Origin: Candidatus Bathyarchaeota archaeon
GTDB taxonomy: Archaea > Thermoproteota > Bathyarchaeia > Bathyarchaeales > Bathycorpusculaceae
Direction: 5' to 3'
Length of the DNA: 64,000 nucleotides
NCBI GenBank assembly: GCA_963827165.1
Contig: CAWGZR010000009.1
Location: forward strand, 192,001 to 256,000
The notes under the pieces are model-generated. The model was not told the DNA's origin and made no database searches. It saw only the letters and a program-made list of their open reading frames with translations. Shown one piece after another: positions 1-2,943 of this stretch. Position numbers and translations under genes: made by a program. Position 1 is the first letter of the stretch. Each line of letters opens with the position of its first letter.

Positions 1-1715
1 TCCGTCGCGAAGGCGCGGGCTTCTTCCGAATTCATGCCTTTTTCCGTGAAGGCTTCCACTGTTTCCCTAAACCCAGCTAAGTTAATCATTCGGCTGCTGT
101 TTTCCAACCTAAAGTACACGTCGCCGCTGCCGGTTCGCAATAGGAAAGGCAGAGAGTTTCTACCAAATTGCTTAAGTGCGGCACTTTTTATACCTATGGC
201 GCGGGCGGCAAGCTCGAAGCGTTCCCTTACAAGTTCGAAAAACTTGTTTTTGTCCTTCTCGCATTCCAAAGCAATTCTAGGAAGGTTCAAGGTTACGCAG
301 CCCAGACTACCTGTACGTAAAGTGTCGGTTTCCCAGTCACCTGTCAAATCCGAAGCAAGCTTCGCTCCAGTAGAAGAATAAGCAGCATTTTCGTTTTCTT
401 TGCGAGATATATTAGCGAGGTAAGGTGCGCCTCTTTCAAGTGCTAGCTGATGTACTTTTAATAGAAGCCCCTTTGTGGTCTCGTCCGCGAAGGATTCTTT
501 GGCTACTCTCACAATCAATTTGGGATTGAGCAATGGCTTGCTTAGGCTTTCTTCCGAAAAAACCTGAATTACCAATGTAGCCAATAGCTGGCTCTCCGCC
601 TCGAAGTCGCCGTATTTACCGCAGAATTTTCCCAAGGGACCCACCGCCTCTTTCTCAGCGGTTGCCTTCGGAATGGAGAGATCAAGCGCCAATGTAGATT
701 GGGCATGCTGGTTCAGGTTCAAAATGAATAGCCGCAGGTTTTCTTTAAGACGAGGAGTTTCGACGCCTTTTGCAAATGGAGCAAGGAAAACGTTGAAGTA
801 CGTGCAGGTCTGGGCTTTGCTAACCTCTTTGTTGGCGTGAAGCAAAACGCTGAGGGCAACGGCGAGTGCCGATTCAAAGTCTCTTGGTGGCTCAATCGCG
901 GCTTGCAGTGGATTGTCCAATTTGAGGCCATTTTGCAGGAAAAATCGTAGGTCATGGTTAACTTCGCTCGGCTTGGTAATCCATGTACCTAAGCCGTCTA
1001 CGTGAATGGCGCCTGAAAGATGGGCGTCAGCAATGTCTCTTGGAAAAATGTTTAGCAGAGTGTACTCTTCCAAGACGGCTTCCCCCGCTTTGGTTATTAA
1101 GGCTGCTGAATCTGCTACTTGGTCTTTGGCTTCGATCGAGGCGGTTACCTCGTGGACCGGCATGCCGACCCGCGTTAGTTTATGGCGGTAATCTTCGTAG
1201 CCTTTCTCAATCAAGATGCCGTTCACGACTTCGCGTATTAACGCGGCTGTGAGATACTTTGTTTTAGATTTAATCAGTCGTTTTTCAGCTTCCTTAGCTG
1301 CTTTCTGCGCCAACTCAGCAGGAACCTTCGCCTCTTTAATGAGTGAATTAGCGATTTTGTTAACGTCGAATTCTTCCATCGTCAAATGCGAAGTACGAAC
1401 AACCATGCCTCTGGGTTTAACTGCCTTCGCTTCAACTCTGTCAGCTACATCCAAAACCATCTTGCCCAAGTCAGTGAGGTAATATTTTTTAGCATCAACA
1501 TCCGCCTCAACCAAATCAGCCTTCAACATGAACTTTAGATGATATGCAAATCTGCCTGCGTCCCGACTCGGATTCATCTTCAGCGCCATCATAAGCTCTG
1601 TATAGCTAAGAGCGGTTCGGTCAAAGAGCAAGTTGAGGATTTGCAGCCTAAGCGGTGAAGAAACAGCTTTAAGAACTTTGACGCCGCGTGCACGGAGCGG
1701 AGGCTGATTAACCAT
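1..1715 (-). CDS. ArsR-like wHTH + ATP-cone + class III (NrdD-like) ribonucleotide reductase fusion, probably catalytically inactive; 3' end runs off the window
   Basis: Not in the ORF track (no stop inside the window). Manual translation from ATG 1715: MVNQPPLRARGVKVLKAVSSPLRLQILNLL...GRFAYHLKFM (wHTH); VVRTSHLTMEEFDVNKIANSLIKEA...LTAALIREVVN (ATP cone); DAHLSGAIHV, HDLRFFLQNGL, GCVTLNLPRIA (NrdD-like core). The frame is open to base 3. Confidence 0.85.
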   Translation of the reverse strand, partial: MVNQPPLRARGVKVLKAVSSPLRLQILNLLFDRTALSYTELMMALKMNPSRDAGRFAYHLKFMLKADLVEADVDAKKYYLTDLGKMVLDVADRVEAKAVKPRGMVVRTSHLTMEEFDVNKIANSLIKEAKVPAELAQKAAKEAEKRLIKSKTKYLTAALIREVVNGILIEKGYEDYRHKLTRVGMPVHEVTASIEAKDQVADSAALITKAGEAVLEEYTLLNIFPRDIADAHLSGAIHVDGLGTWITKPSEVNHDLRFFLQNGLKLDNPLQAAIEPPRDFESALAVALSVLLHANKEVSKAQTCTYFNVFLAPFAKGVETPRLKENLRLFILNLNQHAQSTLALDLSIPKATAEKEAVGPLGKFCGKYGDFEAESQLLATLVIQVFSEESLSKPLLNPKLIVRVAKESFADETTKGLLLKVHQLALERGAPYLANISRKENENAAYSSTGAKLASDLTGDWETDTLRTGSLGCVTLNLPRIALECEKDKNKFFELVRERFELAARAIGIKSAALKQFGRNSLPFLLRTGSGDVYFRLENSSRMINLAGFRETVEAFTEKGMNSEEARAFAT

Positions 1716-1843
1716 AAACCCTTCCCCAACAGATCCAAATCGGTGCCACTCTTATTGTTCACGCAACCGTTTAAAGTTAACTAAGGACTTTATTTCTTGA
1801 TATCGCAGTCTTTTTATTGCGGTGTTTAAGAAGGAAAAGCGAT

Positions 1844-2508: not shown

Positions 2509-2943
2509 TTACAAATTGCCTCTTAGCCAGGTTTTGACTGTTTCGTAGCTACAGAATAATGTGAGAATGGCTGTGGTGAGCACGGAGAACACGTATTCCC
2601 GGGTCAACTGTGCTGGCATCATAAAAGTCAACTCTACGGCCAGCGCAGCGACTGCGAAGATGGCGTAGAAGAGGAATCTTGGAATTAGGAAGCGGTTGAC
2701 TTTTACGCTGTTTTCCAAAAGGAACTTGCTGACTGTGAAGCCGCCGCATTCTCTCTTAAGCAAGCCGGCGTCTTCCAGCTTGGATAAGTGATAGGTTGCC
2801 ACTGACGGGCTGCTCATGTTGAGTGCTCTTTGCAGTTCGCGAGTTCCCACTGGCTTGTTGCTTTTCAGCAGAAAACGGTAAACTTCAAGAGTTGTTCCCC
2901 TGAGCACTTCTTTTGAGTCGTCGTCAGGCAAAGCAATCCACAA
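2509..2943 (-). CDS. wHTH transcriptional regulator with two C-terminal TM helices
   Basis: GTRELQRALNMSSPSVATYHLSKLEDAGL HTH followed by two hydrophobic segments. Confidence 0.75.
   Translation of the reverse strand: MWIALPDDDSKEVLRGTTLEVYRFLLKSNKPVGTRELQRALNMSSPSVATYHLSKLEDAGLLKRECGGFTVSKFLLENSVKVNRFLIPRFLFYAIFAVAALAVELTFMMPAQLTREYVFSVLTTAILTLFCSYETVKTWLRGNL

Follow-up and report, generated by a model that had tools for sequence, protein, structure and literature searches.

Gene and domain architecture

A stretch of 64,000 nucleotides from the genome of a Candidatus Bathyarchaeota archaeon (GenBank assembly GCA_963827165.1, contig CAWGZR010000009.1, positions 192,001 to 256,000 of the forward strand; G000:C9:192001-256000 in our numbering) was analysed and is called the window in the following. 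The genome, designated G000, comprises 3.13 Mb and is 94.5% complete. At the left edge of the window lies a gene for a protein which resembles the anaerobic ribonucleotide reductase (RNR) NrdD and carries an additional winged helix-turn-helix (wHTH) domain. This protein and its relatives are named dead NrdD here; the active NrdD of G000 is referred to as P0002. The open reading frame at 3..1715 (minus strand) starts with ATG, encodes 571 amino acids and is open at the left edge of the window. By reading the contig beyond this edge the complete gene was obtained (G000:C9:191496-193715, 739 amino acids); the window holds codons 1-571, and the last 168 codons lie to the left of it.

An earlier note on this DNA had described one frame uniting an ArsR-like wHTH, an ATP-cone and a NrdD-like core. 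Pfam and the complete gene confirmed this, and the strings quoted there (TKPSEVNHDL, AAYSSTGAKL and LGCVTLNLPR) are present. In the partial protein Pfam detected the wHTH at residues 14-89 (DUF7347 with 30.5 bits, HTH_5 with 24 bits at a cut-off of 22), the ATP-cone PF03477 at residues 104-177 (32 bits, cut-off 25.8) and NRDD PF13597 at residues 207-570 (156 bits, cut-off 26.2). On the minus strand of the window, the ArsR-like wHTH (residues 14-98, delimited by Pfam, a profile match and an AlphaFold2 model) is located at 1422..1676 and the ATP-cone with a conserved linker (residues 104-186, recognised by Pfam, invariant positions and the lowest rate of nonsynonymous substitution, dN, of all parts) at 1158..1406. 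The NrdD-type alpha/beta barrel core (residues 207-571, continuing to about residue 700; Pfam, AlphaFold2 and Foldseek) occupies 3..1097. The Zn ribbon (C707, C710, C721 and C724) and the tail ending in FDRFAST were read from the contig sequence, on the same strand to the left of the window.

The AlphaFold2 model of dead NrdD, calculated with an alignment of 49 sequences, reached a predicted local distance difference test (pLDDT) of 88.1 and a predicted template modelling (TM) score of 0.79. In a Foldseek search against the PDB the top 35 ranks were all NrdD chains, with E-values down to 1e-26. The best matches were 9d3x, 8p2s, 4coj and 1h79, with TM-scores on the target of 0.61-0.76.

Loss of the catalytic residues

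The NrdD of P. copri (PcNrdD) has its radical site at Gly711-Tyr712, the radical-initiating Cys416 at the tip of the finger loop and a second catalytic Cys171 located in beta-strand 1; HxHD, which binds the substrate triphosphate, and the NxN flap are the substrate-binding motifs of NrdD (PMC11226230). Dead NrdD and P0002 are 24% identical over 683 aligned positions (BLAST). The PYC of P0002 corresponds to KPSE in dead NrdD, i.e. the Cys of beta-strand 1 is replaced by Glu251, within KPSEVNHDL (residues 248-256; 948..974, minus strand). The finger-loop sequence MCCRL of P0002, whose Cys380 aligns to the radical Cys of PcNrdD, reads TGAKL. This remnant, STGAKL (residues 448-453; 357..374, minus strand), has Ala451 at the position of the thiyl-radical Cys in the BLAST register. 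HIHD is degenerate as H238-V-D-G (993..1004, minus strand), and the ENSNM flap of P0002 has no counterpart. The TLNLPR strand is kept (residues 475-480; 276..293, minus strand), with N477 invariant. At the recovered 3' end the Zn ribbon CDNC...CPCC is followed by the terminus ...ALATFDRFAST. P0002 ends with YSRVVGYLRP, including RVVGYL; dead NrdD stops after RFAST, and the Gly-Tyr radical motif is absent. The match of dead NrdD to TIGR02487, the NCBIfam equivalog of NrdD, scores 226.7 bits at a cut-off of 326.35 and stops at profile position 550 of 581, ahead of the radical loop; P0002 scores 569.5 bits.

The same losses could be shown for the family. In an alignment of 213 proteins, 199 fill the wHTH columns. 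Seven of them were set aside, since their phmmer matches did not begin before residue 51 of the query, leaving 192 wHTH members. Six of the seven (all except P0259) were scanned with Pfam and gave ATP-cone and NRDD matches without a wHTH. Among the 192 members, three have a Cys within three columns of the beta-strand-1 site, six a Cys near the thiyl site and four G[YF] near the Gly site. No member combines two or more of these radical features, and all three occur together in six of eight reference NrdDs without wHTH. HxHD was found in four of the 192 members (seven of the 199 sequences) and NxN in three of the 199, all of them set-aside true NrdDs. Among 49 members, the column of the beta-strand-1 Cys holds Glu (18), Ser (9), Thr (7), Asp (4), Asn (4) and others, and no finger-loop column has Cys in more than two. 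Cys occurs in at least 30% of the members only at the four Zn-ribbon columns (C707, C710, C721, C724; 49/49 each). Arg735 in the tail is Arg or Lys in 44/49.

The earlier note had stated that Cys is missing from both catalytic positions and inferred that catalysis has been lost. Both statements hold with Glu251 and Ala451 aligned to active NrdD, and the loss extends to the radical Gly, HxHD and NxN. The Cys of LGCVT, named there beforehand as a residue that could overturn the claim, is Cys in only 10/49 members, and the 3' end, to which the note had pointed for the decisive motifs, contains the Zn ribbon and no Gly-Tyr motif. Dead NrdD is almost certainly a real and conserved pseudoenzyme, predicted from its residues to be capable neither of generating a glycyl or thiyl radical nor of using one.

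Winged helix and ATP-cone

The region of the recognition helix, SRDAGRFAYHL, is nearly invariant across the dead NrdD family, and D52, A53, G54, F56, Y58 and H59 are invariant in 21 of 21 sequences. In the AlphaFold2 model the domain consists of helices 21-33, 38-44 and 49-65 and strands 69-72 and 77-80. A profile of the N-terminal 205 residues matched ArsR 6j05 among the PDB sequences (E 7e-4), with an insertion before the recognition helix. The match to the NCBIfam ArsR/SmtB subfamily NF033788 (28.9 bits) lies below its cut-off of 55. Furthermore, a weak match to the Sso10a family was detected (E 0.038).

In cone and linker ten positions (V106, R107, F116, I121, E128, R161, R177, R182, G184 and P186) are invariant in 49/49 members. 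Basic residues are found at K/R120, R177 and R182 in 49/49 and at H178 in 45/49. Asn167 of S. thermophilus NrdD (StNrdD), a core residue touching the cone-bound ATP, aligns to Asp230, which is kept in 48/49. Dead NrdD and the active archaeal NrdD encoded beside the orthologue in genome G007 have VRTS and YxxxLTRxGxPV (TRLGLPV) as common motifs of cone and linker. Since VRTS also occurs in this active enzyme, the variant cone may work, and the VRTS type may be a functional variant.

One further protein of G000 uses a cone outside RNR: a 253-amino-acid protein at G000:C4:252881-253642 (L007, 904-1665) has an N-terminal ATP-cone match of 30.7 bits and an uncharacterised C-terminal part.

Distribution, phylogeny and selection

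In homologue searches the same four Pfam domains were found in more than 120 clusters (72-96% identity), the majority of which are named 'anaerobic ribonucleoside-triphosphate reductase'. With phmmer, 310 proteins were found at E <= 1e-30 among representatives at 50% identity. Within the class Bathyarchaeia 201 genomes were sampled (labelled G, with families labelled f). A match at E <= 1e-20 was detected in 185 of them, and in about 137 a match at E <= 1e-76 is intact and full-length, wHTH included, with 33-100% identity. A relative was found at 584 loci altogether in species-representative genomes, and the source labels include Nitrososphaerales, Promethearchaeota and Thorarchaeota (Asgard).

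In a quick maximum-likelihood tree with 53 rows one branch, supported at 100 by the Shimodaira-Hasegawa-like approximate likelihood ratio test, has all 25 wHTH rows on the same side. They are set apart from the two types of active NrdD as well as from a different group of dead NrdDs with two cones. The tree is unrooted; hence it is consistent with a single origin of the wHTH-bearing proteins and does not prove it. In the explanation we favour, dead NrdD would be an old paralogue of NrdD. Two other routes were considered. A recent tandem duplication of the neighbouring archaeal nrdD could not be shown, as the tree places dead NrdD outside all sampled active NrdDs. An active wHTH-NrdD as intermediate was not obtained either; active NrdDs with an N-terminal extension carry two ATP-cones and lack a wHTH.

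The group with two cones represents a second kind of dead NrdD (P0195, P0199, P0218, P0224, P0238, P0268 and P0237). Two ATP-cone stretches and no wHTH were found in the six that were scanned (all except P0237), and each protein is without the Cys of the finger loop, without the Gly motif or without either. These proteins nest among the active archaeal NrdDs, which indicates a separate loss of catalysis.

For the pair G000 and G187 the ratio of dN to the synonymous rate (dS) is about 0.06. By part, dN is 0.066 for the wHTH, 0.034 for cone and linker, 0.151 for the barrel and 0.120 for Zn ribbon and tail. The evolution of the barrel is thus 2-4 times faster than that of the N-terminal domains. 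In more distant pairs dS is saturated; the order of the parts in dN is unchanged. The gene is under purifying selection, which is strongest on wHTH and cone. As for expression, short contigs covering parts of the gene are present in four RNA-library runs (four studies), two of them at least 99% alike and one about 94% (a relative). This signal is weak, may stem from DNA carry-over and gives neither a transcript start nor a level.

Gene neighbourhood

The neighbourhood was read at 27 loci: G000, six loci chosen for an adjoining second NrdD-like match and 20 picked as one or two per family. Two of the 20 (G136 and G066) were already known to be nrdD-adjacent, so 18 loci are free of pre-selection. 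A true nrdD follows dead NrdD on the same strand in 12 of the 27 loci, eight of which had been pre-selected for it. The gap is 32-327 nt in the 11 of these 12 loci that were measured (all except L022). The adjoining nrdD is of the archaeal type, 31% identical to dead NrdD, in ten loci and of the P0002 type in two. Next to it a gene for a glutaredoxin or an NrdH-like protein is often present; other neighbours vary. At the end of the cluster pyrB is found in convergent orientation in 17/27 loci. The 18 loci without pre-selection comprise four with nrdD, nine with pyrB (one with both) and six with neither. One of these six, G005, has a class II RNR 0.5 kb downstream. Including G005, six genomes of family f11 (G017, G011, G005, G053, G029 and G074) carry a class II RNR downstream on the same strand, at a distance of 0.5-1.9 kb. 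In family f29 a class II RNR was detected in 22 of 22 genomes, a NrdD match in none of the 22 and dead NrdD in 20. In other lineages dead NrdD is repeatedly located just upstream of RNR genes of three kinds.

Among the closest species another arrangement was found. In 79 loci with 57-88% identity, pyrB follows dead NrdD in 72, convergently in 71; the remaining seven have a flank of less than 1 kb. A true nrdD within 3 kb was found in none of the 79. In G000 pyrB and dead NrdD are arranged tail to tail, with their stop codons 4 nt apart.

The active RNR genes of G000 are located elsewhere. The earlier note had asked whether the genome has a separate active RNR and NrdG; an active NrdD and NrdG were found on contig C8 in a canonical nrdR-nrdD-nrdG operon (G000:C8:36300-39600, L002). 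P0002 scores 1082 bits against NF006126 (cut-off 548), NrdG2 181 bits against TIGR02495 (cut-off 131) and NrdR 157.3 bits against TIGR00244 (cut-off 124.65). A class I or class II RNR was not found in the 94.5% complete genome. Among the 201 genomes of the class, NrdR exceeds the cut-off in 37, namely in G000, in 26 of the 27 other members of its family and in 10 of the 43 genomes of f18. Within the class, NrdR is therefore confined to the family of G000 and a part of f18, and f18 has no dead NrdD.

Some single loci are described for completeness. In G136 (G136:C9:15560-17388, L062) the 3' end of dead NrdD is duplicated. A fragment of 101 amino acids with the Zn ribbon and the downstream element GTATAAAATTTTATAC adjoins a tyrosine integrase, and the place resembles an attachment site at which an element has integrated. 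Between dead NrdD and nrdD of the same genome (L033) lies a glutaredoxin-like remnant of 37 codons with CPRC; G090 has a glutaredoxin gene for 101 amino acids at this place. In G137 (G137:C73:774-2906) the true nrdD beside an intact dead NrdD contains three in-frame stops (two TGA, one TAG), so the active gene may be decaying while dead NrdD is kept. Next to dead NrdD in the window, on the minus strand, the stretch 1850-2461 contains a VapB-type antitoxin gene (2231-2461) and, downstream of it, an apparently broken PIN toxin gene, which is intact at the same place in G187. The gene at 2509-2943 (minus strand) encodes 144 amino acids comprising a winged helix of the HTH_20 type and, in the C-terminal part, hydrophobic stretches which look membrane-spanning; its place is conserved in G187.

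Promoter elements

Two blocks upstream of dead NrdD are recognised by conservation, each occurring once in the genome. The first, TTAGTTAACTTTAAAC (1769..1784, minus strand), resembles a B recognition element (BRE) and TATA box about 55 nt before the ATG. The second, AATAAGAGTGGCACC (1742..1756, minus strand), lies downstream of it and may be an operator or only the transcript start. In the family of G000 the promoter reads T-A-G-Y-T-A-A-S-N-TTTAAAC, followed 12-14 nt later by AATAGGTAGAGCAC, with conservation across 63 loci. The dead NrdD promoter of eight other families reads CT(C/T)TAATTTTTTAAAC, and in two further genomes this element precedes nrdD instead. A scan of five genomes with AATTTTTTAAAC gave nine exact matches, five being the dead NrdD promoters and four lacking a downstream gene, and five matches for the reversed control. 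As the mark of a wider regulon AATTTTTTAAAC was discarded, since genome-wide no enrichment beyond the promoter of dead NrdD itself was detected.

RNR promoters carry TGTATAAAATnnTGTA 7-8 nt before a BRE/TATA-like block. The exact 15-mer GTATAAAATNNTGTA occurs once per genome in G103, G090, G136 and G124, which belong to three families, each time between dead NrdD and the RNR gene. The grx-nrdD promoter of G090 carries GTATAAAATTCTGTA. Allowing one mismatch in GTATAAAATNNTGTA gave counts equal to the control. In G000, with seven such matches versus four for a scrambled pattern, there is no evidence for the element. The pyrB promoters have AAGAGTTATTTA in common and share nothing with those of dead NrdD or RNR. 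In general, these conserved non-coding elements stand at fitting places and are candidate sites only.

Proposed function

We consider it rather likely that dead NrdD is a nucleotide-sensing, DNA-binding transcription regulator. It would act as a dimeric transcription factor, with the NrdD barrel supplying the dimer. Binding of ATP or dATP to the cones would reposition them together with the attached pair of wHTH domains, as the cones move in active NrdDs. Through this movement the protein would bind to DNA or be released from it, both at its own promoter and at those of genes for nucleotide supply. The RNR operon of G000 has its own NrdR. In this genome the regulator would probably act on its own promoter and possibly on pyrimidine genes. 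RNR genes are plausible targets in many lineages and unsupported ones in G000.

Tentatively, a wider scenario can be drawn, about which we are considerably less confident. A whole RNR might have been turned into an allosteric transcription factor through which Bathyarchaeia, Nitrososphaerales and Asgard archaea control the supply of DNA precursors and pyrimidines independently of NrdR. In G000 and its lineage the nrdR-nrdD-nrdG operon would have taken over RNR, and the pseudoenzyme would have been kept for other targets, marked by the pyrB linkage.

A number of results weigh against a regulator of this kind. They concern nucleotide binding first. The cone hairpin of dead NrdD is V106-R107-T108-S109, with R107 invariant and without a Lys-Arg pair. 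For the cones of E. coli RNR and S. thermophilus NrdD, the Lys-Arg pair of the N-terminal hairpin is described as phosphate-binding, together with basic residues that helices 1 and 4 contribute (PMC12662201). No solved ATP-cone was matched at E <= 1 by the profile of the N-terminal 205 residues among PDB sequences, and a search of these sequences with the cone only gave matches at chance level. In addition, the specificity-site Gln225 of StNrdD aligns to Ser289, i.e. the Gln is not kept. The statement of the earlier note that the allosteric nucleotide sites are preserved stands only in part: the cone is the best conserved part of the protein, with its ten positions in 49/49 members, but the VRTS hairpin, the missing match to solved cones, Ser289 and the loss of HxHD and NxN speak against it. 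Nucleotide binding by dead NrdD is inferred only.

Further objections concern the targets. The convergent orientation of pyrB means that no promoter is common to both genes. The own-promoter blocks overlap BRE/TATA and the transcript start and may be ordinary promoter or leader features. A motif search in ten intergenic regions gave an information content of 11.3 versus 9.4-10.1 in five shuffles, a modest margin. For GTATAAAATNNTGTA there was no exact match in G007 or in G000, and a factor other than dead NrdD could bind the RNR-promoter element. By k-mer counts, TATA-anchored alignments, motif search and reading of the upstream regions, no motif common to the dead NrdD, RNR and pyrB promoters was found. 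An operator conserved before the nrd genes, as the earlier note had anticipated, was likewise not found in G000.

Finally, nrdR directly precedes the P0002-type nrdD in G000 and, within its family, in 26 of the 27 other genomes that were sampled. Upstream of nrdR in G000, at a distance of about 40-90 nt, lie the inverted repeats ATATAGTGTGT ... ACACTACATAT, which resemble NrdR boxes. The NrdR box is described as a pair of 16-bp palindromes (PMC12051234). RNR control in G000 may thus not involve dead NrdD. G000 has its own nrdR-nrdD-nrdG operon, and dead NrdD is located elsewhere, beside pyrB; therefore it is no simple substitute for NrdR in this genome. Dead NrdD and NrdR are kept together at separate places and are therefore not redundant. 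The view of dead NrdD as an archaeal functional analogue of NrdR, put forward in the earlier note, fits the location upstream of RNR genes in other lineages and does not simply hold for G000 and the 26 family genomes with a true NrdR at nrdD.

Four other explanations were compared with the regulator. Dead NrdD might be a nucleotide-binding protein which is associated with DNA in a non-transcriptional role, e.g. as a link between the supply of dNTPs or pyrimidines and replication or repair, or in a chromatin-like manner. The weak Sso10a match (E 0.038) and the lack of an identified operator would suit this, as would the conserved pyrB linkage in 72 of 79 close loci (the other seven with a short flank) and in several other families. 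We nevertheless regard it as unlikely. The place before RNR genes with a genome-unique promoter element fits a local regulator, and ArsR-type wHTH domains are typically sequence-specific regulators.

Dead NrdD could also be a non-catalytic partner which tunes RNR at the protein level, by forming a heteromer with active NrdD or by titrating NrdG, with a secondary role for the wHTH. NrdD enzymes are dimers (PMC11226230), a true nrdD stands beside dead NrdD in 12 of 27 loci, and barrel and Zn ribbon are under purifying selection. This is, however, hard to reconcile with f29, where 20 of 22 genomes keep dead NrdD with a class II RNR in all 22 and no NrdD match, or with the six f11 genomes with dead NrdD beside a class II RNR and the relatives labelled Nitrososphaerales. 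In addition, the wHTH is among the slowest-evolving parts, and in G000 active nrdD and nrdG are on another contig. A partner role is therefore judged quite improbable.

An enzyme with a chemistry that needs neither a glycyl radical nor an active-site Cys appears very improbable. The barrel and some loop motifs persist (G-x-[RK]-L, NLPR and Arg735 as Arg or Lys in 44/49), but none of the three radical residues and neither of the substrate-binding motifs is kept, the positions of the former active site differ between members and the barrel changes 2-4 times as fast as wHTH and cone. A decaying pseudogene or an assembly artefact, for which only the loss of catalytic residues speaks, is refuted by intact frames in about 137 of 201 genomes, the dN/dS of 0.06 and the 584 loci with a relative. 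Four DNA runs which hold at least half of the sampled words of the stretch (one run being possibly the source) also speak against it, and this last explanation can practically be dismissed.

Significance

To our knowledge, the transcriptional regulation of RNR is not known for most archaea. NrdR occurs in most bacteria and only in some archaea, as stated in PMC9110341. Dead NrdD is a concrete candidate for the missing archaeal RNR regulator. If this is true, it would clearly exemplify how a large radical enzyme has been taken over as the scaffold of a sensor. In databases the protein is entered hundreds of times as 'anaerobic ribonucleoside-triphosphate reductase'. By this label genomes would be credited with an anaerobic RNR which they possibly lack; an example is f29, where only a class II RNR was found. 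Dead NrdD is probably an undescribed nucleotide-sensing gene regulator which is labelled as an enzyme in databases. A wHTH-bearing or catalytically dead NrdD was not found described in the full-text literature, including the main texts of PMC9669993, PMC9531940 and PMC3019208 (supplements and RNRdb were outside the scope).

Comparison with known systems

The N-terminal domain of dead NrdD resembles the ArsR/SmtB regulators in its matches to HTH_5 and ArsR 6j05, with the NF033788 score below the cut-off. In contrast to them, its wHTH is fused to cone and barrel, has an insertion before the recognition helix and shows no evident metal site.

The NrdDs of known structure (9d3x of S. thermophilus, 8p23 of P. 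copri, 4coi of T. maritima and 1h78 of phage T4) have the ten-stranded barrel with finger loop in common with dead NrdD. NrdDs of the ATP-cone type also have the N-terminal cone, the C-terminal Zn ribbon with four Cys and the NLPR strand. Dead NrdD differs by the loss of Gly-Tyr, the thiyl Cys, the beta-strand-1 Cys, HxHD and the NxN flap, by an additional N-terminal wHTH of about 100 amino acids and by a score under the NCBIfam equivalog cut-off. A branch with a support of 100 separates it from all sampled active NrdDs.

NrdR (TIGR00244) is a repressor specific for RNR genes, of about 150 amino acids, with a Zn ribbon and an ATP-cone. The DNA-binding domain of dead NrdD is a wHTH instead of a Zn ribbon, and its sole Zn ribbon is C-terminal. 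Furthermore, it carries a dead reductase of about 550 amino acids, gives no TIGR00244 match at E <= 1e-5, has no linked operator resembling an NrdR box and coexists with a true NrdR in the family of G000. Common to both is a DNA-binding domain joined to an ATP-cone, and in many lineages the gene of dead NrdD is located just upstream of RNR genes. The proposed logic would also be the same: the adenine nucleotide status, read by the cone, would control DNA binding.

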